DNA of 64,000 nt. Origin: Terriglobia bacterium. Its GTDB lineage: Bacteria; Acidobacteriota; Terriglobia; Terriglobales; Acidobacteriaceae. Location of the stretch: assembly GCA_963765715.1 (NCBI GenBank), contig CAVXXN010000004.1:342373-406372 (forward strand), read 5' to 3'. Within the stretch, counting starts at the first letter, position 1; each line of letters opens with the position of its first letter. The notes beneath the pieces are model-generated. The model was not told the origin of the DNA, made no database searches, and saw nothing but the letters and a program-made list of their open reading frames with translations. Of this stretch, positions 5,064-41,340 are shown in pieces. Position numbers and translations under genes: made by a program.

Positions 5064-5712
5064 ATGAGATCCAGAATGGAAATTCGAACCTATGCACGTG
5101 TTAGACCCTATCTATATCATCTGACCGATTGGTCAAACGTTGACCATATTATCCAGACGAATGAGCTTCTGTCGGCAGCGACTTGGATTGAACATGCTGC
5201 GCGTGAAGACTTGTTAACAATACGACGCCCTGTAGATGAACGACTAACTGTAAGCGATACTGTAATTCTCATTCGCGACCAAGCGCCTCTACATAGAGGA
5301 AACCTGTCGTTGCCGACTGGCTATACATTCGAGCAGTTCATCGAGAGCCTAAATCGAAGAATCTTTTTTTGGCCAGGCACTGATGCGGGTCCCATCATTA
5401 TGGTGTCCGCCACTTCGAGCGATATCGGTCGGAGCATCCTGCAATTTTAAAAATCGATTTTCAATCCTTAATTAATTCAAATCCTGCCGTCGAGCCGCGT
5501 TATTGCCGGTACAACTCAGGCTCCCCGCGATGTTCACATGGACAGAAGAGCCCCGTGGCCCAAAGACATTCCAGTCTGGAGATCAATTCGTCGGGACACC
5601 CAGTGCCGCTGTTGAGGTGACGTTCAGCGGCCCGCTTATACTGCCAGCAAATGTGAGAATCGGCAGGCTCCCTTCAGGTCCGTGGCGCCACCTCAACTCT
5701 CGCCTAAAGTAG
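5064..5712 (+). pseudogene. DUF7002-like protein, frameshifted (at least two -1 events)
   Basis: Frame 0 reads RPYLYHLTDWSNV...LIRDQAPL...LNRRIFFWPG. After about 5398 it reads YGVRHFERYRSEHPAILKIDFQSL...RYNSGSPR. After about 5555 it reads PRGPKTFQSGDQF...AVEVTF. About 40 percent GC in hand-counted stretches. Confidence 0.55.
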
Positions 5713-5718
5713 AACGGT

Positions 5719-6021
5719 GGGTGGCCCATTCAAGCCCTCTTTTGGATTGAGTGGGAGTCCATATTCCCCAACTCTGTCATCCCGACCGGAACAGATCGTC
5801 GCGAACGCCATGATCTGTGGAGTGGAGGGACCTGCTGTTGTGAGCGAGAGTGAAGGTCGACGGCGGTGATAACAGCAGAATGTGACGGAATGACTCTGCC
5901 CGCTGTGGCGAAAACACATCAGTCCCCATGGCGTGAGGACAATCTGGTTTGTTCGTCGGTCCGAGTCTGTGACGTGTGAACATCCCCACTCAAGCCAAAA
6001 CCGGGCTTGAATGGGCCACCC
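5719..6021 (+). mobile_element. MITE-like element, copy 2 (303 bp, perfect 18-nt terminal inverted repeats)
   Basis: Starts gggtggcccattcaagcc and ends ggcttgaatgggccaccc. Same orientation and internal blocks as copy 1. Confidence 0.75.
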
Positions 6022-6050: not shown

Positions 6051-7478
6051 ATGAGTAGCGGCAAGAAAAAAATAGAGAGAATAGGAGATTGCACTTGGAA
6101 GCTTGGGCGCAATGACCCGTGCAGTTGTGGAAGCGGCCTAAAGTTCAAAAAATGTTGCTGGCCCGAAAATAATAAGTCCCGCCGATCCCCGAGTAATGTC
6201 GTCGAAAGATGGAAAAGCCTGGAAGGAAGCCCCACCAGAATTGCGCGAGAAGGCAATTCATGTGTTTGAAGAAAAAGGAGCGCAAGGAGCAGGAACGCGT
6301 CTGCACATTTTGGTCAAATAAGGCCGCAGTATTCAATGGTGCATCAAGGCCACCGAATGGTCACGGTGCGCAACAGAATCTACTATTCGGACAAATGGAA
6401 GTTCTTTCCCGATTTTCTCCGTGACTACGTGCCGCAGGTTCTTGGCCTTGAATGGTGCAAAGCAGAAGCAGCGAAGCCAGAAGCAGAGCGCCATCCAATC
6501 ATTACTTGGCGCGCGCAAGGAGTAGCGTACATCAACAATCAGCCAGCTCAACCTGATGGGAGCCGGGTGGCGCTGCCCTGTGGTGCATTGGCAGCATATA
6601 GTTGCTTCGCGTACGACCTTTACGTCGTCGCCGACAACGGCGGGCTTGATGACGAATTCCTACAACGGCTGAAGAATCGGGAACTGTTTCAGGGTGCACG
6701 CCATGAACTCTTCGCTGAAGCGACTTGCTATCGGGCGGGGTTCACAGTGCAACACGAAAACGAGAAAGATGGGAGCGCCCGCCACGCAGAATTTACCGTA
6801 AGGCACGCACCAACGGGCCAGCTTCTATCGGTCGAAGCGAAAAGTAGGCATCGCGCTGGTGTACTAGCGATGCAGGGTACGCCAGAAGATAGGCCGCAGT
6901 TACGGCTCACGCCCCTAATCAATGACGCAGTGGCGAAAAACCCAAACCACCCTCTCGTGATCTTTGTGGACGTTAATCTGCCGTTCAAATTGGCGGAAAG
7001 GGTGTTAGGGCGGCAGGCGGGAAACACAATATCTCGCCCCCTGCAGATCATGCTAGACAGAATTAAGAAGCAGCACAATGACGTGGATCCCTATTGCATG
7101 ATTATTTTCAGCAATCATCCGCATCACTACGCGGTTCGTGATTTAGACCCACAGCAGCATCTACTTTCCGTGGTGTCGCAAAAGCCAAGTGCGCACAAGC
7201 TTTCCTTGCGGAGCCTTTTCTTGGCTGCCGGATTGTACGGCAACATTCCGATGGGCTTTTCGTTGGACGAGGGCGACCCGCCGCCGCCCGCCGTGCCCGT
7301 TGTTTGGCCCAAGGTCCGTTATGACTTTCAAATGACCGAAACAGATGTTAGCGTGTTGCGTGAAGGGATGGCGGTACCCAAGAAATTTTTGACCACCGAC
7401 AAAGACCGTGCACAAGCACCCAGCGCGCTGCACGAGTTTTGGAAGATATTGGGTTATCACGTGCGGATGCTCACATGA
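6051..7478 (+). pseudogene. SEC-C motif protein with PD-(D/E)xK-like core, N-terminal region disrupted
   Basis: [20 protein letters not shown] metal-binding motif at the N-terminus. The reading appears to pass through frames 0, 1 ([20 protein letters not shown]), 2 (ERKEQERV) and back to 0 (GQIRPQYSMVHQGHRMVTVRNRIYYSDKW), followed by an intact 380 aa. Possible nuclease motif HAEFTV...LLSVEAKSR. Confidence 0.55.
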
Positions 7479-26306: not shown

Positions 26307-29300
26307 ATGCCGAAACGCACTGACATCTCGAAAATCCTGATCATCGGCTCTGGCCCCATCATCATTGGCCAGTCGGCGGAGTTTGACTACTCCGGGACGC
26401 AGGCTTGCAAGGCGCTGAAGGCCGAGGGGTTTGAGGTGGTGCTGGCGAATTCCAATCCGGCGACCATCATGACCGATCCGGAGATCGCCGACCGCACTTA
26501 CATCGAGCCGCTGACGCGCGAGTACCTGGAAGAAATCATTCGTGTCGAACGCGAGATGTCGCCGGGCGCGGGCTTCGCGATCCTGCCTACCGTCGGTGGC
26601 CAGACGGCGCTCAATCTCGCAATTGAACTTTCTGACGGCGGCGTGCTCGAAAAATACAACGTACCTCTTATCGGCGCCAATGTGGCGGCGATCAAGAAGG
26701 CGGAAGACCGTCTTTTCTTCAAAGACGCGATGCAGAAGATTGGGCTCGATGTTCCAAAGTCAGCCCTGGTCAACAATCTGAAAGATGGCCTCGAGTTCGC
26801 CGGGAAAATCGGCTTTCCGGTGATCGTGCGTCCGTCGTTCACGCTGGGCGGAAGCGGCGGAGGCATTGCCTACAACCGCGAAGAGCTGCTGGAAGTCCTG
26901 GCCCGCGGGCTTGATTTCTCTCCGGTTCACGAGGCGTTGATCGAAGAATCGGTGCTCGGGTGGAAAGAATATGAGCTCGAAGTGATGCGCGATATGCGCG
27001 ACAACGTCATCATCATCTGCTCGATTGAAAATTTCGATCCGATGGGCGTTCATACCGGGGATTCCATCACCGTGGCGCCGGCGCAAACTTTAAGCGATCG
27101 TGAATATCAGGCCATGCGTGACGCGGCGATTGCCGTGATCCGGGAGATTGGAGTGGAGACCGGCGGATCGAATATCCAGTTTGGCATCCATCCCACCACC
27201 GGGCGCATGGTGATTATTGAGATGAATCCGCGAGTTTCGCGCTCGTCGGCGCTGGCGTCGAAGGCGACAGGTTTTCCCATTGCAAAGATTGCCGCCAAGC
27301 TTGCGGTGGGTTATACGCTGGACGAAATTCCCAACGACATTACGCGCAAGACTCCAGCCTGTTTCGAGCCTACGCTGGATTACGTGGTCGTGAAAATTCC
27401 CAAGTGGCAATTCGAGAAGTTTCCCGGCGCGGACGAGAATCTTGGGCCGCAGATGAAGTCGGTGGGCGAAGTGATGGCCATCGGGCGCACCTTCAAGGAG
27501 GCGCTGCTCAAAGGAGTGAGGGCTCTTGATACCGGGAAGAGAGTCGGGTCGGAAAAGATTGAGCCGAAGATTCTTACTCAGCGCCTGGTGACGCCGCATC
27601 CGGAGCGGCTGTCTTACGTTCGCTACGCGTTGCGGCAGGGGCATACCGTCAAGCAACTGGCGAAGATGACTTCCATCGATCCTTGGTTTCTGTACCAGCT
27701 GAAAGAAATTAACGACATGCAGCTGGAACTGGAAAAACATCCGATGGAGTCAATTCCCACCGAAGTGTTGCGGTCGGCGAAGCGCATGGGATTCTCGGAT
27801 GGCCGCCTGGCCGGGGTTTGGCGGCTGGATGGCAAGGGGTCGCAGGAAAAAGTTCGTCATTTGCGGAAGAAACATGGAATCTCGCCGGTTTACAAGCGGG
27901 TGGATACCTGCGCGGCGGAATTTGAGAGTTTCACGCCGTACCTTTATTCGACTTACGAAGAAGAAGACGAAGCGACTCCGACCGACAAGAAGAAAGATCA
28001 TCATCCTGGGAAGCGGGCCGAACCGGATTGGGCAGGGAATCGAGTTTGATTACTGCTGCTGCCATGCGGCGTTTGCGCTGCGCGATGATGGCTACGAGAC
28101 TGTGATGATCAATTGCAATCCGGAGACGGTCTCGACTGATTACGACACCAGCGATCGCCTGTATTTCGAACCGTTGACGCTGGAGGATGTTTTCGCCATC
28201 TGCGAGCACGAGGCTTCTTCGGGCGCTCCGGTGGGCGTGATTGTGCAGTTCGGTGGGCAGACGCCTTTGAATCTCGCGCTGCCGTTGAAGGCTGCGGGCG
28301 TGAATATCATCGGGACAACGCCGGAATCAATCGACCTGGCCGAAGACCGCAAACGATTCGGCAAATTGCTGGACGAACTCGGTATTCCGCAAGCCCCGGG
28401 GGCGATGGCCGCTTCGGTGGAAGAGGCCGTCGAAGGAGCAAAGAGGGTTGGGTTTCCGGTGCTGGTGCGGCCGTCGTACGTGCTGGGTGGACGGGCGATG
28501 GTGATCGCGTACGACGAAGAGATGGTCGTCCGCTATATGAAGGAAGCGGTGGAGTATTCGCAGGACCGTCCGGTGCTGATCGATCACTTTTTGGAAGACG
28601 CGATTGAAGTGGACGTGGACGCGCTTTCGGATGGCGAGGATGTCGTCATCGGCGGGATCATGCAGCACATTGAGGAGGCCGGAATTCACTCCGGTGATTC
28701 TTCCTGCGTGCTGCCGGCGGTGGATATTCCAGAGGCATTGCTGGAGCGGATGCGGGATTACACCTTCCGACTGGCACGTGCCCTGAAGGTTGTGGGGCTG
28801 ATGAATATTCAGTTCGCGATTCCGAGGATGGCGGGTGAGGCTTCAGACGAATTTTCAAGCCGTCCGCACACCGAGCGGGACACAATTTATGTTCTGGAAG
28901 TGAATCCACGGGCTTCGCGAACGGTGCCGTTCGTTTCAAAAGCGACGGGGATACCGATGGCGAAGATCGCGGCGCGACTGATGACTGGACGCAAGCTGCG
29001 GGAATTTCTGCCGGAGTTCATTGAGCGGCGTGCGGACCTCGATACGGGGCGGAGCTATCACGTAAAGTCTCCGGTGTTTCCGTGGAACAAGTTTCCCGGG
29101 GTCGACACCGTCTTGGGTCCGGAGATGAAGTCAACTGGCGAGGTGATGGGCGTCGCTGACACCTTCGGAGAGGCATTCGCCAAAGCCCAGACAGCGGCGG
29201 GGCAAAAGCTGCCGACGCAGGGAACGGTTTTTATCAGCGTTACAGATCACGACAAGCCCAACGTCACAGAGGTGGCCCGCAAATTTGTGGATATGGGTTT

Positions 29301-29640
29301 CAAGCTGGTGGCGACGGCGGGTACCGCCGACGTGCTGGAATCCGCGGGCATGACCGTGGAGCGCGTCTACAAAGTGAAAGAGGGAAGGCCTAACACGGTC
29401 GATTTGATCAAGGGTGAGCGCATCCATTTGATCGTTAACACGCCACACGGGGCGGATCCCTGGTTTGATGAGCAGTCGATCCGGCGAGCGGCGGTGATGG
29501 CGCGAATTCCCACCATCACGACCTTGTCGGCGGCCCGGGCAGCCGCGGAAGGGATCGCGTTTTTGCAGCGCGGCGAGGTTCACGTGCAGGCATTGCAGCA
29601 CTTGCATGCGGAGCGTACAGTGAGAGGCCAAAGCGGGTAG
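26307..29640 (+). CDS. carB: carbamoyl-phosphate synthase large subunit, one +1 frame disruption near 27988
   Basis: [33 protein letters not shown]. The second half continues in the +1 frame as [21 protein letters not shown]. The junction reads gacaagaagaaaGatcatcatc. Confidence 0.95.
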
Positions 29641-30213: not shown

Positions 30214-31278
30214 ATGTTACTGCAAGGTATTTTCCCTCCGATTACTACGCCGTTTTATCCCGACGGCAACATTTACTTCAAAAAGCTGGAGCACAATGTC
30301 GACCGCTATTCCAAAACGCCTGTCGCAGGTCTCACGGTGTTGGGGTCGACTGGCGAAGCGATCATGCTCTCGGATGACGAGCGTCGCAGCGTGCTTAAGG
30401 CAGCGCGAGAGGCTGCTGCGCCGAACAAGGTGCTGATTGCAGGAACTGGAATTGAGTCGGCTATTGAGACGCTGCGGCTCACAGAATATGCGGCCGAACT
30501 TGGTTACGACGCGGCGCTGATCCGCACTCCGCACTTCTACAAACGAGTGATGCATCCCGCAAACATGCTGGCGTTTTATCGCACGGTTGCGGACAGTTCG
30601 TCCCTGCCGGTGATGCTCTATAACGTCCCAGGTTTTACGGGGTATGACATTCCCGCTGAAGTCGCGATAGAACTGGCAGAACATCGCAACATCATCGGAA
30701 TGAAGGAATCGGGCGGCGACGTGGAGAAAATTTGCAAGATGGTGGAGGGTACGCGGCATGTGAAGCGCACTGCCACCGTGACCGAAACTTTCGATGCGGT
30801 GACGCCGCGCATGCTCAAGGCTTCGAGCGGCAGTAATGGGCAGGGCGGGGAGCTGGTGCAAGTCGGAGGATTGGGCGGGACGAAACCGTCGTCCGCGGCA
30901 GTGAGCGTAGTCAGTGGACTGAAGACACGACAAAAAGAAGTGGGTTTCCAGGTGTTGGTCGGTTTGGCGCAGAAGCTGGAGCCATCTCTGCAAGCTGGCG
31001 CGGTGGGTGGAATTCTGGCGTTCGCCGACGCGGCTCCCACTGCCTGTTACGAGATTTATGCTGCCTGGAAAGAAGGCGATGCGGAACTGGCTCGCCTGAA
31101 GCAGGACCGCATTACGAACGCCACGCAACGCGTCTCGGGCGAACTCGGCATTCCGGGATTGAAATATGGAATGGACCTGAACGGTTATTTTGGCGGCCCG
31201 TCCCGCTTGCCGCTGTTGCCGCTTACGGCGGCGTTAAAGGCTGAAGTGGAGCAGTTGCTGGCGGATGTTCGGAATTAG
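30214..31278 (+). CDS. dihydrodipicolinate synthase family protein with an internal insertion of about 60 aa
   Basis: ITTPF, GLTVLGSTGE, YNVPGFTG and IIGMKES (Schiff-base Lys). Extra segment at aa 183-242 (about nt 30760-30940), judged against E. coli DapA from memory. Confidence 0.8.
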   Translation: MLLQGIFPPITTPFYPDGNIYFKKLEHNVDRYSKTPVAGLTVLGSTGEAIMLSDDERRSVLKAAREAAAPNKVLIAGTGIESAIETLRLTEYAAELGYDAALIRTPHFYKRVMHPANMLAFYRTVADSSSLPVMLYNVPGFTGYDIPAEVAIELAEHRNIIGMKESGGDVEKICKMVEGTRHVKRTATVTETFDAVTPRMLKASSGSNGQGGELVQVGGLGGTKPSSAAVSVVSGLKTRQKEVGFQVLVGLAQKLEPSLQAGAVGGILAFADAAPTACYEIYAAWKEGDAELARLKQDRITNATQRVSGELGIPGLKYGMDLNGYFGGPSRLPLLPLTAALKAEVEQLLADVRN

Positions 31279-31402
31279 GGTTCCCATTTGCCGTGGTAAA
31301 AGCATTGACCGCCAAGGACGCTAAGTAACACGAAGGAAGTCCCTCTCGTCACTTGCCCCTCAACCCCTCAGCTTGCATCCCTGGTTGCTGGTGGTCTATT
31401 AT

Positions 31403-31422
31403 TTGAACGAACGTTCGAACAA
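31403..31422. promoter_or_regulatory. candidate TetR operator (imperfect 20-bp palindrome)
   Basis: ttgaacgaac|gttcgaacaa, with a perfect 10-bp core cgaacgttcg at 31408-31417, abutting the TetR start codon. Confidence 0.4.
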
Positions 31423-32114
31423 TGGCTACCGTCTCTCCAATCGATTCGCGGTTTTCAGGCCGGCGACGAAGTCCTGATTCGGGGCTTCGTCTGGAGACCC
31501 GCTTTGACCGCCGGCTGGCTAAGATCCTCGTCCACGCCACCAATGTTTTCTTCGAAAAGGGATATGCTGCCGCGTCGATGCGAGATCTATCGCGCGCTAG
31601 CGGAGTCTCGCTTTCTGGCCTGTACTACTACTTCAAATCAAAAGAAGAACTGCTTTATCTGATCCAAAAAGACACTTTTGCCACAATTGTCACCCGGTTG
31701 CGACAACGACTCGAAGGCGTCAGCGATCCCACGGAACGGATTCGCTGTTTCATCCTCAATCATCTGGAATATTTTCTCGCCAATCAAAAAGCGATGAAAG
31801 TTCTTTCGCATGAAGACGAAGTCCTTGGGAACGGCTTCGGCAGTGAGATCGCCGCCATCAAGCGCGAGTACTACCGCATATGCATCGAGCTCCTGGACAA
31901 CTACAAGGCGGCAAGAGGACTAGAATTTTCCAGTCGGACCGGAGTGCTCAGTCTGTTCGGGATGATGAACTGGATTTACACCTGGTACAACCCGCGGGTC
32001 GACGCTGGCGCCCAGGAATTGGCGAGAGAGATGGGCGACATTTTTCTGAAGGGTGTGGGAGCCACATCGGGCAAAGCGACGGGGACAAAGAGAAAACCAC
32101 ATTCTGCAAACTGA
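31422..32114 (+). CDS. TetR/AcrR family transcriptional regulator
   Basis: ATNVFFEKGYAAASMRDLSRASGVSLSGLYYYFKSKEELL helix-turn-helix. Confidence 0.9.
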   Translation: MATVSPIDSRFSGRRRSPDSGLRLETRFDRRLAKILVHATNVFFEKGYAAASMRDLSRASGVSLSGLYYYFKSKEELLYLIQKDTFATIVTRLRQRLEGVSDPTERIRCFILNHLEYFLANQKAMKVLSHEDEVLGNGFGSEIAAIKREYYRICIELLDNYKAARGLEFSSRTGVLSLFGMMNWIYTWYNPRVDAGAQELAREMGDIFLKGVGATSGKATGTKRKPHSAN

Positions 32115-32150
32115 AACGAACTATTACGATTGCAAAAAAGGAGTATGACC

Positions 32151-32972
32151 ATGGCAACTACAGTACAGCCGGCGAGCGGTGAGACTACGAAGCAGCTGAT
32201 TAACTATCGCGTGGATGGCGGCGTGGGAGTGATCGAGTTGAGCGATCCTCCGGCAAATACATATACCTACGAGATGAACCGCCAACTGGACGAGGCGATC
32301 CTGAAGGCACGCATGGACAACGATGTACACGTGATCGTGCTTACCGGTGCGGGAGACAAGTTTTTCTCCGCAGGCGCCAACATCAAGATGCTGGTCAGCG
32401 TCGATCCGACATTCAAGTATTACTTCTGTCTTCATGCCAACGAAACTCTGTTAAGGCTCGAGCACACTCCCAAGCTGGTCATCGCGGCGATCAATGGTCA
32501 TTGCGTAGGCGGCGGCCTGGAGATTGCCATGGCGGCGGACATTCGAATCGCGCGCCAGGATGCCGGGAAGATTGGTCTGCCGGAAGTGAACCTGGGTGTG
32601 TTGCCCGGAACTGGCGGCACGCAGAGGCTTTCGCGAATGGTGGGCAAAAGCAAGGCCATCGAATTGATGGTTACAGGGAATACTTTCTCTTTCGAAGAAG
32701 CGAAAGAGATGGGAATCGTGAACGACGTTTATGAGCGCGATAATTTCATGGAGAACATCATGGAGTATGCCCGCCAGTTCTGTCCGCCTAACAAAGCCTC
32801 AAAGGCCGTGGGACGGATCAAACGTGCGGTGCAGACGGGTTGGGAGATTCCCATGGAATCCGCGCTGGCGGTGGAGCGGGAAAATCAGCAGCTGCTGTTC
32901 CAAAGCGAGGATGCCAAGGAAGGCCTGGCAGCTTACGTGGAGAAGCGTCCAGCTACGTTCAAGGCTAAATAA
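32151..32972 (+). CDS. enoyl-CoA hydratase/isomerase family protein
   Basis: VIVLTGAGDKFFSAGANI, AAINGHCVGGGLEIAMAADIRIA, EGLAAYVEKRPATFK. aaggag lies 8 nt upstream of the ATG at 32151. Confidence 0.9.
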   Translation: MATTVQPASGETTKQLINYRVDGGVGVIELSDPPANTYTYEMNRQLDEAILKARMDNDVHVIVLTGAGDKFFSAGANIKMLVSVDPTFKYYFCLHANETLLRLEHTPKLVIAAINGHCVGGGLEIAMAADIRIARQDAGKIGLPEVNLGVLPGTGGTQRLSRMVGKSKAIELMVTGNTFSFEEAKEMGIVNDVYERDNFMENIMEYARQFCPPNKASKAVGRIKRAVQTGWEIPMESALAVERENQQLLFQSEDAKEGLAAYVEKRPATFKAK

Positions 32973-32980
32973 CAAAGTTA

Positions 32981-33051
32981 AACCACCAAGGACATTAAGT
33001 ATCACGAAGGAAGACTTTAAAACCTCGTGTTACTTCGTGTTCTTGGTGGTT
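32981..33051. repeat. REP-D inverted pair (aaccaccaaggac...cacgaagg hairpin)
   Basis: aaccaccaaggacattaagtatcacgaagg pairs with cctcgtgttacttcgtgttcttggtggtt. Relatives at 10272-10306 and 31307-31345. Confidence 0.8.
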
Positions 33052-33068
33052 CGAGAGGTTTAGAAATT

Positions 33069-34245
33069 ATGCCGGGAAAAGTTGCAAAGATCGGGACATT
33101 TAGCGACTGGGTTGGCTTGTTTGATGATTGGCGCAAGGACATTGGCGTCAATCACGATGAAATTGCCAGCTTCAAATTCGACACGCTATTCGGTGCTATC
33201 GAGACGGATGAGATCCAATTCGGACATTTCAAGGGACGGCGCAAATGGGAAAACCTGCGCCAGGTGCCTACGCAGCAGATGCGCGACGCGATGATGAACA
33301 TGATCGTCTATCAGGGCGACACCGAATTCGCCAGCGTGGAGCAGCAACGCTATCTTTTCGAGAGCGCACCCACCGACTGGGACCGGCGGGCGATCACACG
33401 GGTAATGATCGAAGAAATGCGTCATGGCTGGCAGATGTGCGCTTTGCTCGTCGACCACTTCGGTTATTCGGGAAAAGTGGAAGCGCAGAAGATGCTGGAA
33501 CGGCGGGCATTCGATAACAAGCGTCTGTTGGGCGCATTCAACGTTGACGTAGATAACTGGATGGATTTCTTCACATACACCGATTTCGTGGATCGTGATG
33601 GCAAATTCCAGTTGCAGATGTTCAAGTATTCGGCCTTCGCGCCGCTGGGGCGTTCGATGTCTTATATGCTGCGCGAGGAAGCGTTCCACATGGGGACGGG
33701 GAATGATGGTCTGCGCCGTATCGTGCAGGCCGGCGTGATTCCGGGCTGGCTGATCCAGAAGTATCTCAACAAGTGGATTTCGAGTTCCTACGATTTATTC
33801 GGGACCGATCACTCGTCGTCGGCACATTGGGCTTATGTGTGGGGTATCAAGGGACGGTATGACGAGCCGAAAAACGAGCAGACTGCGGACCTCGACGACT
33901 TGAACGACTACAACCGGCATCTTTATCGCGATGAGGTGGCGGCGATTGATCGAGCGATTTAACGGGGTGCTGGCGGCGGGCCAGCCCAGGCTTTATGCTC
34001 CGCACATCAAGTTCAATCGCCACATCGGACGCTGGTCGGGACAGAAATTCCATGCGCAGACTGGCGAGGCGATTGACGATACCTCGTACGACGGGCACCT
34101 GAAAGAGTACATGCCGTCCGGCCGAGGACAAGAAGTTTTGCTCGATATCATCAGCAGCGAGAAAAAGTGGATTGTACCAAAAGAAGGCGCGCGCGATCCG
34201 CTGGCTTCGATTGGCGAGGTTCGCAAGTCAGCAATTAATTTGTAA
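33069..34245 (+). CDS. BoxB-like diiron acyl-CoA oxygenase (benzoyl-CoA 2,3-epoxidase subunit B family), one +1 frame disruption near 33940
   Basis: IVYQGDTEFASVEQQRYL, MIEEMRHGW, FVDRDGKFQL and MLREEAFHMG give two E-x-x-H diiron motifs. The C-terminus continues in ORF 33931-34245 (LIERFNGVL...HIKFNRHIG). Confidence 0.65.
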
Positions 34246-34328
34246 GGGTTTGATTTGCGGATCACCGGAGCTCTACGGATTCACAAACAGTTCGCAGATC
34301 CCGGTTCTTCAGTTGAAATAATCTGACG

Positions 34329-35090
34329 ATGGCTGAAGCTACTTACACTCTGGGTGAGTTGATGGTGGCCAGCGCGGCGCGGGAGATCCGTGATGGTGAA
34401 GTGGTTTTCGTCGGGATGCGCCTGCCGCTCATCGCGTTTGTGGTGGCAAAGAAGACCCACGCGCCCAACGCCGTTGGACTATTCGAGAATGGCGTAATCC
34501 GGACCACGCCCGCGCCGGAATTGATTTACACGATGGCCGACCCGCCGAATCTACTCGGCGCAACCCAGTGTCTCGATATGCTGGGGGTGATGAGCCTGTT
34601 GCAATCGGGACGCGTGAATCTCGGCTTCCTGGGAGCGGCGGAAGTTGACCGCTTCGGCAACCTGAATTCGACCGAAGTTCACGGGCCGAAGGGGTTGACA
34701 CGATTGCCGGGATCGGGTGGTGCCTGCGATATTGCGTCCCTGGCGCACCGTTTTGTGGCCTTGTTGGAGCATAGCAAGGGACGCCTGCCGGAGCGGGTCT
34801 CATATCTTACCAGCCCGGGAAACGGTGACGGGGCGGGTTGGCGGCGACATATGGGTCTGCCGCGGGGCGGTCCTGCGGCCGTGATCACGACCAAGGCTGT
34901 GCTTCGCTTCGGCAATGATGGTGAGGCTTACCTGTCATCTGTGCATCCCGGAGTTGAAGTTGACGACATCTTACGCAACACAGGATGGAATCTGCGTATT
35001 CCCGGCAAGGTTTCACCGACGCAGGAGCCCAGCGCGGAAGAATTGAAAGCCATCCGGGAATACGACAAAGACGGATTCTGGACCAAGTAA
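34329..35090 (+). CDS. CoA-transferase subunit B-like protein (glutaconate / 3-oxoacid CoA-transferase family)
   Basis: LGFLGAAEVDRFGNLNST....G...RLPGSGGACDIA. Confidence 0.8.
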   Translation: MAEATYTLGELMVASAAREIRDGEVVFVGMRLPLIAFVVAKKTHAPNAVGLFENGVIRTTPAPELIYTMADPPNLLGATQCLDMLGVMSLLQSGRVNLGFLGAAEVDRFGNLNSTEVHGPKGLTRLPGSGGACDIASLAHRFVALLEHSKGRLPERVSYLTSPGNGDGAGWRRHMGLPRGGPAAVITTKAVLRFGNDGEAYLSSVHPGVEVDDILRNTGWNLRIPGKVSPTQEPSAEELKAIREYDKDGFWTK

Positions 35091-35109
35091 CATTTCTGCT
35101 CCGCTGAAA

Positions 35110-35899
35110 ATGAAAACCAGCGAGACACTTTCGCGATCGCGAATCAACTTGGAGATCCAACCTCCTCTGGCGCGCATCTGCCTGTGTAATCCGCCGCTGA
35201 ACGTGATCGATATCGCGATGATGGAAGAACTCACGGTAGCTCTGGGCGAGATCGAAGCACGAAATGAGCTATCCATTATCTTGCTGAGCGGTACCGGAAA
35301 GGCGTTTTCGGTTGGAGTGGACGTCGCCGACCATACACCCGACAAAGGTGCAGAACATGCTGAGCAAGTTTCACGCGGTGATTCGTGCGCTGATCGGCAC
35401 AAAGAAAGTGACCATCGCATGCGTGCATGGCCATTGTCTGGGCGGCGGGGCGGAACTGGCGATGGTGTGCGACATGGTGTATACCGCCGACAACGCGGGG
35501 TGGGGGTTCCCTGAGATCAAACTGGGATGCTATCCACCTGTCGCCGCGACGGCGCTGGCGGCATTAGTCGGGCAGAAACATGCCGCGGAACTGATGCTCA
35601 CCGGGCGCACGATCCAGCGGTCAGGAAGCAGCAAACATTGGCCTGGCAAACCGCGCAGTTCCCGAGAGCTGAAGTAGAGGCCACTGTGCTGGAAACCGTG
35701 CAGGAGCTATCGAAACTCAGTTCGGCTGCGCTGGCTGTGGCCAAAAAGGCGATGTACGGCTGGGACTCGATGCACTTCGACAAAGGCTTGGCGCGGGCGG
35801 AAAAGATTTATCTGGATGAGTTGATGAAGATCGAAGACATGCACGAGGGCATTCAACGCCTTTCTGGAGAAGCGGCCGCCAAAGTGGAAGGGAAAGTAG
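35110..35899 (+). CDS. enoyl-CoA hydratase/isomerase family protein, four successive +1 frame disruptions
   Basis: Phase runs 1, 2, 0, 1, 2 across LLSGTGKAFSVGVDVADH, CVHGHCLGGGAELAMVCD, TGRTISGQEAANIGLANRAVP, AEVEATVLE...AKKAMY and AFLEKRPPKWKGK, with the stop at 35897-35899. Confidence 0.75.
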
Positions 35900-36825
35900 A
35901 TGTCGAGCGCCTCCAAAGTTCGATCCATGCGCGAAGCCATCGCTGAGTTTGTCCCGGACGGCGCTGCCGTCGCGCTTGGTCTGCAAATGGAGCAGATGAT
36001 TCCTTTTGCCGCGGGGCACGAGATAGTTCGGCAGGGCAAACGCGGCCTCACACTGATTGGACCGATCTCGGACATTCTGTTCGATCAAATGATCGTCGGC
36101 GGATGTGTCGAACGAGTGATTGCAGCATGGGTTGGAAACGTGATGATGGGGTCGGCCTACAATTTCCGACGCGCGGCGGAGCGCGGCAGCGTCAAAGTCA
36201 CCAACATGACGAATTTCAGCGTCGCGCTGGCGCTTCAGGCCGCTGCGATGGGCGTACCGTTTCTTCCGACTCGAACGGCGCTTGGCAGCGATGTAGCGCA
36301 AGGGAATGAGTTTTTCGCCGAGATCGGATCGCCGTTTGCTGAGCGATGACGCTGCAAAACTGCATGCGGTGCAAGGCGCTTTCGCCGGATGTTGCGATAG
36401 TTCACTTGCAACGGGCCGACCGCGATGGGAATGCGCATTGCTGGGGGAATTTCGGCGTCATGATCGAAGCGGTGCGAGCGTCGAAGCGCGTGATCGTCGT
36501 GGCCGAAGAGATTGTCGAACCGGACGTGATTGCAAGCGATCCGAACCGGACGGTAATTCCGGGATTTCTGGTCGACGCAGTGGTAGAGTGCCGGTACGGC
36601 GCACATCCGTCACCGGTGCAGGGATATTACAAGCGTGACGATGCGTTCTTCCGTCAGTATCACGAACAGACGAAGGCGCCAGCAGACAGCGCCGCATGGT
36701 TGCAGCGTTGGGTTCATGGCGTTGCCGATCGTCAAGCGTGCATGAATCAGTTGGGCGGGTGTCGCGTGGAAGAACTGGGTGTCAAGAAACATGCATACGC
36801 GGCGCCGACGGATTTTGGGTATTAA
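35900..36825 (+). CDS. CoA-transferase subunit A-like protein, two +1 frame disruptions near 36345-36380
   Basis: MREAIAEFVPDGAAVALG, then ALSPDVAIVHLQRADRDGNAH. Its ATG directly follows the previous stop (TAGATG). Confidence 0.75.
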
Positions 36826-36959: not shown

Positions 36960-37283
36960 ATGGACTTTGAAATCAGCGCCGGTTTCGTAAAAAGCATGCT
37001 CAAGCGTGGGGACAAGTTCACGCTGCTGGATGTGCGCGAGCCCTGGGAGTTGGAGAAGGCGAGCCTGGAAGGCACAAAGAATATTCCTATGGGCGATGTG
37101 ACCATGCGTGCCCACCAGGAACTTGATCCGGAAGACCACATCGTGGTGGTTTGCCATCACGGGGTGCGGTCGCTCAGCGTTACGAATTGGCTCCGGCAGC
37201 AAGGATTTGAAAAGGTGCAGTCGATGCGGGGCGGCATCGACGGTTGGGCGCGAACTGTGGATCCGAAAGTTCCGTTGTATTGA
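36960..37283 (+). CDS. rhodanese-like domain protein
   Basis: LLDVREPWE and the active-site loop VVCHHGVRS. Confidence 0.85.
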   Translation: MDFEISAGFVKSMLKRGDKFTLLDVREPWELEKASLEGTKNIPMGDVTMRAHQELDPEDHIVVVCHHGVRSLSVTNWLRQQGFEKVQSMRGGIDGWARTVDPKVPLY

Positions 37284-39602: not shown

Positions 39603-40221
39603 TTAGATTTGCTTGCCAAGAATCAGGGGCACATAGCTTCGGGCGTCTTGCAGCAATTGCTCGCGCGCAATACCGGCCTTGGCGCGAAGTTGCAAACCCT
39701 TCATCAAGTCAACGAGCGCACGGCCTCGCACCTTGGCAGAGGGTGTGCGAGTCAGGCGCCCCGCCTTCATCTCCTGCTCGAAACGTTTCGCGAAAATATC
39801 AGCAGCTGCGGTGAGGCCCTTCGCGAGACAGGAACGGATCTCCGTTACTCGCTCCGACTGTCCCAGCGCCGCGGCGACCATCATGCAACCGCCGCGAGCC
39901 TCACCCGAAGCGAGTGTTGACGGTAGCCTCGCAAAAGGCGGTCACGGCCTTGTGGATGTCCGGCTCCGCTTGAAACGCTGCCATTATGGGAGCTCCATAC
40001 GTCATCGCATAGCGCTCGACCGCCTTGAGCAGCAGGGTGGACTTGTCTCCGAAGGCTCGGTATAGCGCGGGTTTGGTGACGTTCACGGCCTGTGCGATCC
40101 GATCTACGTCGACTCCTTCATACCCATGCTCCCAAAACATCTCAACGGCACGGTCGAGTGCTTCGTCGGGGATAAAGCCTTTTGGACGTCCTCGGGCGCG
40201 CTTCGAAATATTAGTTACCAT
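39603..40221 (-). CDS. TetR/AcrR family regulator, one frame disruption near 39890
   Basis: RGRPKGFIPDEALDRAVEMFWEHGYEGVDVDRIAQAVNVTKPALYRAFGDK. The C-terminus continues in ORF 39603-39884. Confidence 0.8.
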
Positions 40222-40364
40222 TGCGTACGAAACTCCTTGCATTGCAGCTGTGATTATCGTACTCTCGCGTATGTAATACTTCAAGACAGATAAACACAGG
40301 AGACAACATGGATAGGTTCAAAGGAAAAACAGCACGACCTTCACCCTTCACCACGGAGACGCCC

Positions 40365-41340
40365 ATGGAACATTCGATCGCGCTCGTCACCGGCACCACC
40401 TCCGGGCTCGGTTATGCGGCAGCCCGCCTGCTCGCCACAGAGGGCTGGCGCGAGATCATCGTCACCGGGCGCAGCCTGGCCCGGGTCCAGGAAACGGCCG
40501 CTCAACTCGCGGCTGAGACCAAAACACAGGTCTTCACGCCGCTGGAGCTGGATCTGAACGCGCCGGCCAGCGTTCAATCCGCCCTCGCCGAGCTGGTCAA
40601 GCGAGGTCGGCCGATCGATTTCCTGCTGCTCAATGCCGGGATTGGTCCCAAGCAAGAAGCGCGTGATCACTGCGGCGGGCGTCGAGGCGTCTCAGGCCCC
40701 GCTGATCGGCCATCATCAACTGACTGTCGGGTTGCTTCGCGCCAACCTGCTGAGCCCCAACGCGCGGATTGTTATCGCCGGCGCGGAGCCTGCCCGCGGG
40801 GGCGTACCCATGTTCAAGTACACCGACGTGCCAGCCTTCGCGGCCAAATACCACCGGGGTGACCGAACCGCCGCTGTGGAAGCCCTGATTCGCAACGGGC
40901 CGAACGTGAAGTACGTGCCCAACAATGCGTATGCCGACGCGAAGCTCATCATCGCTTGGTGGGCCGCGGCGCTGGCGCGCCGGCTACCCTCCGGCATGGC
41001 CGTGTACGCTGTCTCGCCCGGTGGGGCGACCGACACCAAGGTGGTGCGAAACGCTGGCCCGTTGTTGAAGTATCTGTTTATCCCAATCGTGAACCTCATT
41101 CCCGGCATGAATCAGACGCCGGAGACCGCGGCCCGTCGGTACCTCCAGGCGTCGGAGTTCGGAACCGACGTCTCAGGGCAATTCTTCGCCTCGGCTCAAG
41201 GGAAGTTCTCGGGCCCAATTGAGGCGCAGCGCCACCCACACCTCCACGATCGCGCCAGCCAGGAAGCCGCGTGGCAGGCCGTCGTCAAGGTCTCCGGCGT
41301 CGACTTGTCTCACCCAGCATCCTTGACCGCGGTGTCCTGA
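40365..41340 (+). CDS. SDR family oxidoreductase, one +1 frame disruption near 40650
   Basis: IALVTGTTSGLGYAAA and LLLNAGI. The second frame carries NNAYADAK (YxxxK). Divergent from the TetR gene. Confidence 0.8.

Follow-up and report, generated by a model that had tools for sequence, protein, structure and literature searches.

A short BoxB-like diiron oxygenase paired with a crotonase in a TetR-headed operon of Terriglobia

To our knowledge, only two families of diiron enzymes that epoxidise aryl-coenzyme A (CoA) thioesters are known, BoxAB and PaaABCDE. The oxygenase subunit BoxB (Azoarcus evansii; structures 3PER and 3PM5) is a protein of ~470 aa that works with BoxA and is encoded in clusters with boxA and boxC. 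Its diiron centre is ligated by Glu120, Glu150, His153, Asp211, Glu240 and His243; these ligands and a set of second-shell residues are given in PMC5489048. The Paa system combines PaaABCDE with PaaG and PaaZ under the control of the TetR-type repressor PaaR, as in Thermus thermophilus, Burkholderia cenocepacia and Corynebacterium. Here we describe an operon of Terriglobia bacterium (assembly GCA_963765715.1, contig CAVXXN010000004.1) containing a short BoxB-like oxygenase which, by the tests run, is a member of neither the BoxB nor the PaaA family, even if it very probably works like them. The operon occupies positions 31403-36825 of the whole stretch of DNA analyzed (64,000 nt), hereafter called the window.

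Six co-directional genes were recognized by combining the listing of open reading frames (ORFs) with Pfam and NCBIfam scans, and they follow the order proposed in a preliminary description of this DNA, namely TetR, crotonase, BoxB-like protein, CoA-transferase beta (CtB), second crotonase and CoA-transferase alpha (CtA). That description also had the two crotonases flanking the oxygenase, which is loose, since CtB separates the second crotonase (ECH2) from the oxygenase. The TAGATG junction that it reported is real and lies at 35897-35902, the TAG stop of ECH2 occupying 35897-35899 and the ATG of CtA 35900-35902. The features of the locus are the following:

31397-31402, + strand: candidate -10-like hexamer TATTAT, from sequence reading, directly 5' of the operator
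31405-31420, + strand: operator core GAACGAACGTTCGAAC, within an imperfect 20-mer palindrome (31403-31422), ending 1 nt before the TetR ATG
31422-32114, + strand: TetR, 230 aa, intact, with TetR_N and TetR_C_24 domains, of the PaaR/PfmR/FadR-like acyl-CoA-sensing type
32151-32972, + strand: ECH1, crotonase-fold enoyl-CoA hydratase, 273 aa from the second ATG, intact (ECH_1 domain, 203 bits)
33069-34245, + strand: short BoxB-like diiron oxygenase, 391 aa once corrected (TIGR03225, 3PER, AlphaFold2 model)
34329-35090, + strand: CtB, CoA-transferase beta of the glutaconate type, 253 aa, intact (CoA_trans, 73.8 bits)
35110-35899, + strand: ECH2, second crotonase, 261 aa in relatives, frameshifted (read in three frames against the intact copy in the related locus L004)
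35900-36825, + strand: CtA, CoA-transferase alpha of the glutaconate type, ~307 aa, frameshifted (CoA_trans in both pieces)
36961-37283, + strand: single-domain rhodanese, co-directional, downstream of CtA

We read these six genes, at about even chances, as one operon that is controlled by a PaaR-type TetR repressor and serves to break down a CoA-activated acid, its core being the short BoxB-like oxygenase and a dedicated ECH1. Once the base inserted near 33946 is removed, the oxygenase has 391 aa and contains the motifs IEEMRHG, LREEAFHMG, QGDTEFASVEQQRYL, DRDGKFQL and FNRHIG. A search of 5.8 billion proteins returned 4066 matches at E <= 1e-5, the best 120 of which are 85-93% identical to it and nearly all exactly 391 aa long; both the motifs and the length of ~390 aa given previously are thus confirmed. 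By sequence, Azoarcus BoxB (3PER, E 1.4e-50) is the nearest protein of solved structure, followed by SSO1313 (4MUD) and PaaA, and the homology to BoxB spans the whole length of the protein. Its AlphaFold2 model, with a pLDDT (predicted local distance difference test) value of 90.3, has BoxB as best Foldseek match, with a TM (template modelling) score of 0.85 over the query and a ferritin-like diiron fold common to both. In the alignment to BoxB all six diiron ligands are kept, as E86, E116, H119, D175, E204 and H207, and they show little or no variation across the short family. The ligands therefore survive frameshift correction, a point on which the preliminary description had made its proposal depend. 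Also retained are most of the residues that in BoxB contact the thioester and the ring of the benzoyl group, namely Gln116, Thr119, Ser123, Phe193 and Phe203 (BoxB numbering), while of the same second shell Phe206 is replaced by Tyr and Thr210 by Val.

Despite these similarities, the protein is clearly separated from canonical BoxB. It is ~80 residues shorter, as four BoxB segments totalling about that number are missing from the alignment, i.e. the N-terminal extension, an N-terminal insert, a segment of ~19 aa after the second ExxH helix and another of ~25 aa. Against the BoxB equivalog model TIGR03225 (cut-off 499.1 bits), the fragment in the window scores 202.6 bits, the oxygenase 203-230 bits and intact short-family homologues 150-234 bits, below half of the cut-off, whereas canonical BoxB representatives score 509-908 bits. 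In a neighbour-joining tree of representatives selected at 50% identity, the short proteins lie outside the tight clade of canonical BoxB; the distinction from BoxB that was proposed earlier is thus sustained by phylogeny and by model scores alike. The relation to PaaA is weaker. The Pfam domain PaaA_PaaC (PF05138) is found in the window fragment (36 bits, cut-off 28.5) and in all listed homologues, and is common to the Paa oxygenase; on the PaaA equivalog TIGR02156, however, the short family scores only 35-47 bits (42 bits for the short oxygenase) against a cut-off of 280. The second-closest solved structure (E 4e-18; Foldseek TM 0.85 on the target) is that of Sulfolobus solfataricus SSO1313, a 'ring oxidation complex / phenylacetic acid degradation-like protein' that is likewise an uncharacterised member of the superfamily without partners, but has only 235 aa, corresponding to the four-helix core, and is 23% identical.

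Database names for the family differ. JGI/IMG calls many members 'benzoyl-CoA 2,3-epoxidase/dioxygenase component B' (also 'subunit B'), and NCBI names one member (P0027) only 'Phenylacetic acid catabolic protein', after its Pfam domain. None of the curated models names the short subfamily, the plasmid collection contains canonical boxB only and no short-family member, and in the literature we found neither a characterised short BoxB-like protein nor a BoxB in Acidobacteria. A divergent branch of the short family includes P0193 (L092, 8001-9104; 367 aa), in which the iron ligands are lost (QADCH, QENVTS, VNLCAK); it resembles the non-catalytic PaaC, and its gene is flanked by ppx and ruvA and lacks metabolic neighbours.

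The partners of the oxygenase differ from those of both known systems. Reference proteins for tblastn were BoxA, BoxC and benzoate-CoA ligase from an annotated Mycetohabitans box cluster and PaaA-E, PaaK, PaaG and PaaZ from a Paracoccus paa cluster, and the search for partners covered the 64-kb window, 96 related loci (by tblastn) and 80 metagenome loci. No BoxA, PaaB, PaaC, PaaD, PaaE or PaaK was detected in the window or the 96 related loci, where BoxC and PaaG queries gave generic crotonase similarity only, and in the 80 metagenome loci neither BoxA nor BoxC was credibly identified. Another 30 large ORFs of the window, which include housekeeping genes such as GroEL, carA/carB, a GlmU-like nucleotidyl/acetyltransferase and ribA, were scanned with Pfam and yielded no candidate for a reductase or ligase, in agreement with the earlier statement that BoxA, BoxC and a CoA ligase are absent from the window. 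While BoxB operates with BoxA and is clustered with boxA and boxC, the short oxygenase has, in the window and the loci searched, no linked BoxA, BoxC or BoxD and is paired with a single-domain crotonase; in comparison with the Paa system, it is a single polypeptide lacking PaaB, PaaC, PaaD, PaaE and the ligase PaaK. Two candidates for a linked reductase were discarded. The BoxA-like gene near the oxygenase of locus L179 encodes a CysJ-like flavoprotein and is separated from it by a biotin carboxylase gene and a helix-turn-helix (HTH) gene, and a reductase hidden in the gaps of 'minimal' loci is precluded by their size, for the gaps between the DapA-like gene, ECH1, oxygenase and rhodanese measure only 30-170 bp.

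The pairing of the oxygenase with ECH1 is what remains constant across genomes. Scanning one genome per GTDB species, we found at least 549 stretches encoding relatives, of which the best 80 all derive from metagenome-assembled genomes (MAGs) of Terriglobia/Acidobacteriota; these and three more constitute our set of 83 Terriglobia loci. Here the system has a fixed chromosomal position, carB - SnoaL - DapA-like - [TetR] - ECH1 - [aldehyde dehydrogenase] - oxygenase - [CtB - ECH2 - CtA] - [rhodanese] - ribA, the brackets denoting optional genes. In 81 of the 83 loci ECH1 and oxygenase are direct neighbours or share a cluster, and they form the invariant part, so that the conserved unit is this pair and not the six-gene order previously considered. 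Median identity is 91% for ECH1 (81 loci), 88.5% for the oxygenase and 83% for RibA, the DapA-like neighbour also falling below ECH1 and the oxygenase, but only the figure for ECH1 is unbiased because the loci were chosen by oxygenase similarity.

A metagenome scan seeded with divergent members added 80 loci from soil, peat and ocean, all of which carry the signature QGDTEF; their oxygenases are 46-62% identical to the window protein, with the exception of four Terriglobia-like loci (70-89%). Among the 36 metagenome loci with at least 1.1 kb of flank on each side, 25 have an ECH1-like gene within 2.6 kb of the oxygenase and a further 5 have it farther upstream in the same cluster (in total ~30/36, soil and marine), and the ECH1-like proteins of the metagenome loci are 56-74% identical to the window ECH1. 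Even next to the distant oxygenase P0182 (36% identical), the neighbouring crotonase is closer to ECH1 (40%) than to ECH2 (30%), while an acyl-CoA ligase gene lies on the other side. The distribution of the short family may extend to marine archaea, because in a Tara Oceans contig (L179, 6154-8023) the oxygenase is preceded by an HTH_10 regulator of the bacterio-opsin-activator type, a domain typical of Archaea.

The gene upstream of the operon does not share this linkage. It encodes a DapA-like protein of the dihydrodipicolinate synthase (DHDPS) family (354 aa, 30214-31278 of the window) and precedes the operon directly in all Terriglobia loci, but only 1 of the 80 metagenome loci has it, and we have discarded it as a part of the system on account of this restriction to Terriglobia synteny. 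It carries an insertion of ~60 aa, by which the dapA model is matched in two stretches (155 bits, cut-off 206). Most Terriglobia loci conserve the rhodanese gene on the downstream side, as do 11 loci of a second soil clade, and marine loci lack it; it possibly belongs to the system, but the link may be one of synteny alone.

The repressor (TetR_N 53 bits, TetR_C_24 62 bits) has 3DCF and 3VPR as nearest solved relatives, and its NCBIfam matches are the acyl-CoA-binding FadR and FasR, all below cut-off. Among its best annotated matches rank the TetR of the Paracoccus paa cluster and that of Thermus pTT27, which heads an acyl-CoA operon, both 29-32% identical. The palindrome of 20 bp that had been placed over the TetR start (TTGAACGAACGTTCGAACAA, 31403-31422) does end on the A of the ATG; it is imperfect, though, as only 16 of its 20 positions are self-complementary, and its perfect core, CGAACGTTCG, measures 10 bp. 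One exact occurrence of a 16-mer within 64 kb carries no significance by itself. The 16-nt core GAACGAACGTTCGAAC is identical in all TetR-bearing Terriglobia loci (59/59), where it is single-copy and its flanks drift, and it is absent from the Terriglobia loci without TetR. In most loci 1-6 nt separate its end from the ATG, and the operator persists where the TetR is only 48-54% identical (one clade) or 37% (a low-GC organism). Divergent soil loci have the operator directly upstream of stand-alone oxygenase genes with no TetR nearby. In L161 a near-perfect palindrome, TTCTAACGATCGTTCGAAC (~6857-6880), precedes a solitary oxygenase gene by ~40 nt with no TetR in the flanking DNA, an arrangement that would imply control in trans by the same type of repressor. 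The TTCTAACGATCGTTCGAAC motif is found upstream also in the short contigs L174 (~190-213) and L129 (~11-30), in which an adjacent TetR is possible.

The operator resembles those of PaaR. In Thermus thermophilus PaaR is a TetR repressor with phenylacetyl-CoA as effector and recognizes the boxes 5'-CNAACGNNCGTTNG-3' and 5'-AACnAACGTTnGTT-3' (PMC6651687). Of the 10 positions that the PaaR box specifies, (T/C)GAACGAACGTTCG agrees at 9 in the window and at all 10 in loci with the leading C; with the REPSA consensus it agrees at 10 of 12 positions. Like the PaaR site of B. cenocepacia, ACCGACCGGTCGGT (PMC2770484), the window operator is built as a 'dual overlapping inverted repeat', and similar GC-rich boxes occur in intergenic regions of the Paracoccus paa cluster as well as ahead of the Thermus pTT27 TetR, 5 nt from its start. 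A hexamer like TAT(T/G/A)AT occupies the same position in most related loci. We take TATTAT at 31397-31402 as a putative -10-like element from its sequence and place, the consensus promoter scan having made no call there; the promoter and terminator scan gave nothing usable. As the operator core ends 1 nt before the TetR ATG, the operon is probably transcribed with a very short leader or none at all. An autoregulated, TetR-first design with little or no leader, like that of paa operons, is thus well supported at the sequence level, and the predicted effector class is acyl-CoA, possibly aryl-acyl-CoA.

Around the conserved pair, accessory genes vary with lineage and comprise an aldehyde dehydrogenase, a PaaG-like crotonase, and either a glutaconate-type CoA-transferase or a gene of the benzoate-CoA-ligase family. 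In the window the transferase type is present. CtB has 1POI_B as best PDB match (E 8e-35) and keeps the catalytic Glu (FENG aligned to VESG), and the reconstructed CtA aligns end to end with GctA, 1POI_A (E 1.3e-39). CtAB thus resembles the two-subunit, family I enzyme GctAB of Acidaminococcus fermentans (alpha ~307 aa, beta 253 aa, with the catalytic Glu in beta) and differs from it in coming from an aerobic soil bacterium, in lying inside an oxygenase operon and in being present in only some lineages of the system. We considered whether CtAB could be a ring-cleaving hydrolase like IpdAB, following the logic of steroid KstR2-type regulation, and discarded this option, given that the catalytic Glu absent in IpdB is kept and that the match to GctB is far better; because the beta subunit retains this residue, CtAB is by its sequence a true transferase. 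Activation by CoA transfer, as suggested in the preliminary description, would be only one of several lineage-specific options, a ligase-family gene being linked in other lineages. In locus L103 a full-length gene of the benzoate-CoA-ligase family (594 bits, cut-off 375) runs in the same direction as ECH1, the oxygenase and a GntR regulator, and locus L089 has a partial one at 1 kb from the oxygenase. Between the two genes of L089 lies one for an EF-hand protein (1966-2820) with lanmodulin/XopAW-like repeats (LanM model 98.7 bits, cut-off 135).

The aldehyde dehydrogenase of relatives is BADH/StyD-like; its identification as BoxD was unsupported, since the best families are of the BADH and StyD types. 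The third crotonase of larger clusters matches PaaG, alternative oxepin-CoA hydrolase and generic families about equally, all below cut-off, and marine clusters additionally carry a 3-hydroxyacyl-CoA dehydrogenase. In locus L126 a gene for a Mug-like G/U-mismatch DNA glycosylase (5449-5961), an odd passenger for an operon, is placed between the aldehyde dehydrogenase and the PaaG-like crotonase; at the matching position L173 and L122 have a gap of ~560-630 bp (in L122 after ECH1, with no aldehyde dehydrogenase).

The overall logic of oxygenase, crotonase(s) and aldehyde dehydrogenase is like that of the Paa system, and some short-family lineages resemble Box in their linked benzoate-CoA-ligase-family gene. 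From these features we infer substrate, reaction, electron donor and order of steps as follows. The glutaconate-type CtAB would turn the free acid into its CoA thioester, a role that in other lineages would fall to the enzyme of the benzoate-CoA-ligase family. The thioester would then bind TetR and release it from the operator GAACGAACGTTCGAAC, which would overlap the promoter as well as the start of the operon. The oxygenase would bind the acyl-CoA as BoxB binds benzoyl-CoA, and O2 activated at the diiron centre would carry out an epoxidation or hydroxylation with two electrons from an unlinked general ferredoxin or reductase. ECH1, aided by ECH2, would hydrate or open the oxygenated product, after which the clustered aldehyde dehydrogenase of sister genomes would oxidise the resulting aldehyde and enzymes of the beta-oxidation type would complete the breakdown. 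The most likely substrate, judged from sequence comparison, is an aryl-CoA, i.e. benzoyl-, substituted benzoyl- or phenylacetyl-CoA, because the BoxB pocket is largely retained, a gene of the benzoate-CoA-ligase family is linked in some lineages, a PaaG-like crotonase and an aldehyde dehydrogenase accompany the pair in larger clusters, and control is of the PaaR type. The whole fits an O2-dependent module for CoA thioesters in which the oxygenase and crotonase form an obligate pair, while activation, aldehyde oxidation and beta-oxidation steps are added according to lineage. It fits as well the previous proposal of a distinct oxygenase route for a CoA thioester with an unlinked electron donor, no credible linked reductase having been found in the 96 and 80 loci.

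Several observations weigh against this interpretation. The pocket of the short family consistently differs from that of BoxB at four positions (P121F, M205T, F206Y and T210V), giving the signature F/T/Y/V (Phe87, Thr169, Tyr170 and Val174) instead of P/M/F/T. Monooxygenation requires two external electrons, and none of the 176 loci contains a credibly linked reductase; nor is a ring-opening enzyme of the BoxC or PaaZ type present. With its two catalytic Glu motifs (GGGLEIA and PEVNLG), ECH1 has the look of a common short-chain hydratase, and the closest characterised relative of the CoA-transferase acts on C5 dicarboxylates and not on aromatic acids. The TetR is only ~30% identical to known regulators of PaaR context, the window lacks the aldehyde dehydrogenase that about half of the relatives carry, several divergent members of the family stand alone or with TetR only, without metabolic neighbours, and our literature searches found no biochemical characterisation of any family member.

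In an alternative reading the module handles a non-aromatic acyl-CoA, for instance that of glutarate, glutaconate or another mono- or dicarboxylate of C4-C7, with the oxygenase acting as O2-dependent diiron desaturase, hydroxylase or oxidative decarboxylase and ECH1 as a plain hydratase; we regard this as unlikely, though by no means negligible. An aliphatic or alicyclic substrate retains some probability because the transferase is of the glutaconate type, the hydratases look ordinary and no specialist of ring opening is present. ECH1 has 2PPY as best solved relative (E 3e-70), scores 136 bits on both the PaaG model (cut-off 345) and oxepin_alt (cut-off 300), and is similar to BoxC only within the crotonase domain of the latter (34%); its assignment as a hydroxycinnamoyl-CoA hydratase-lyase was unsupported, this enzyme not appearing among the top 60 PDB matches. 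ECH2 equally keeps both Glu motifs and, like ECH1, is nearest to short-chain enoyl-CoA hydratases. The 3-hydroxyacyl-CoA dehydrogenase of marine clusters and the resemblance of TetR to the fatty-acyl-CoA sensors FadR, FasR and PfmR would also suit an aliphatic acid. Conversely, the aromatic-lined residues of the BoxB pocket are mostly kept, two lineages have linked genes of the benzoate-CoA-ligase family, the operator agrees with the PaaR box rather than with the Thermus FadR box, and aerobes already have flavin acyl-CoA dehydrogenases for such steps.

A different question is whether the system still functions in this host. The operon contains seven frameshifts, more than were counted in the preliminary description, and all are +1: one in the oxygenase (the extra base near 33946), four in ECH2 and two in CtA (~36340-36375). 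If they were real, the C-terminus of the oxygenase, ECH2 and CtA would be pseudogenes and the system non-functional here, which we consider improbable. Eight frameshifts were detected between 25 and 38 kb, and decay would account for the crowding of seven of them into 33.9-36.4 kb, with four in the 0.8 kb of ECH2. The eighth, however, affects the essential carB (26307-29640), which is split into two overlapping ORFs by a +1 shift near 27,940-28,000, and each of the eight is a single-base +1 shift, a uniformity suggesting a systematic insertion error in the assembly. The nearest relative L004, a long-read MAG with 90% nucleotide identity, has split genes too, but other ones; ECH2 is unbroken in L004 and CtA in L007. 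On either side of each break, amino acid identity to intact homologues is 77-93%. Because the essential carB is hit as well, the shifts have a single direction and the splits of L004 differ, the seven operon frameshifts are probably assembly errors, even if their concentration in ECH2 gives genuine decay a small chance.

The lack of a linked reductase in any locus could be explained in another way, if the oxygenase were a reductase-independent oxidase taking all four electrons from its substrate, for instance by aromatising or doubly dehydrogenating an alicyclic acyl-CoA. The top NCBIfam match of ECH2, cyclohexa-1,5-dienecarbonyl-CoA hydratase, would agree with such chemistry, but the score is weak (168 bits, cut-off 292) and tied with generic families, so that it does not discriminate. 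Moreover, the BoxB/PaaA branch offers no precedent for an oxidase and many diiron enzymes use unlinked general donors, which makes this explanation quite improbable in our view. Finally, that the protein is simply a classical BoxB whose boxA, boxC, boxD and benzoate-CoA ligase lie elsewhere in the genome would match the IMG name and the common ligands and fold, and the DNA of the host that was searched is the 64-kb window, but this is very improbable considering the equivalog scores, the separate clade with its own pocket signature and four missing segments, the different conserved neighbours, the lack of BoxA and BoxC across the loci searched and the NCBI name, which does not mention BoxB.

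Returning to the PaaR-type operon for a CoA-activated acid, its broadest extension would be that the short BoxB-like protein and ECH1 form a third aerobic, CoA-dependent pathway of dearomatisation beside Box and Paa, widespread in soil Acidobacteriota and occurring also in marine bacteria, with a single-polypeptide oxygenase that lacks a dedicated reductase, being served by a general ferredoxin or taking electrons from its substrate, and with induction by aryl-CoA via a PaaR-like repressor. We advance this proposal tentatively, at chances well short of even. If it is true, a third lineage of aryl-CoA diiron oxygenases is represented in at least 549 species-level stretches and in metagenomes of soil, peat and ocean, and metagenomic estimates of the box pathway in soils are wrong owing to the 'BoxB' label of IMG. 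Surveys of soil and sea that use boxB as marker probably include this protein, which fails the membership tests for BoxB. The different set of partners and the lack of a dedicated reductase raise the question of the electron source and of the product, and the invariant operator with its PaaR-like repressor offers an experimental handle for identifying the substrate.

Downstream of the operon, the window contains a second TetR-like gene (39901-40284, - strand) with weak similarity to the Thermus pTT27 TetR. It is divergent to a gene on the + strand (40308-41340) that is divided between two frames and the larger piece of which has no Pfam match.

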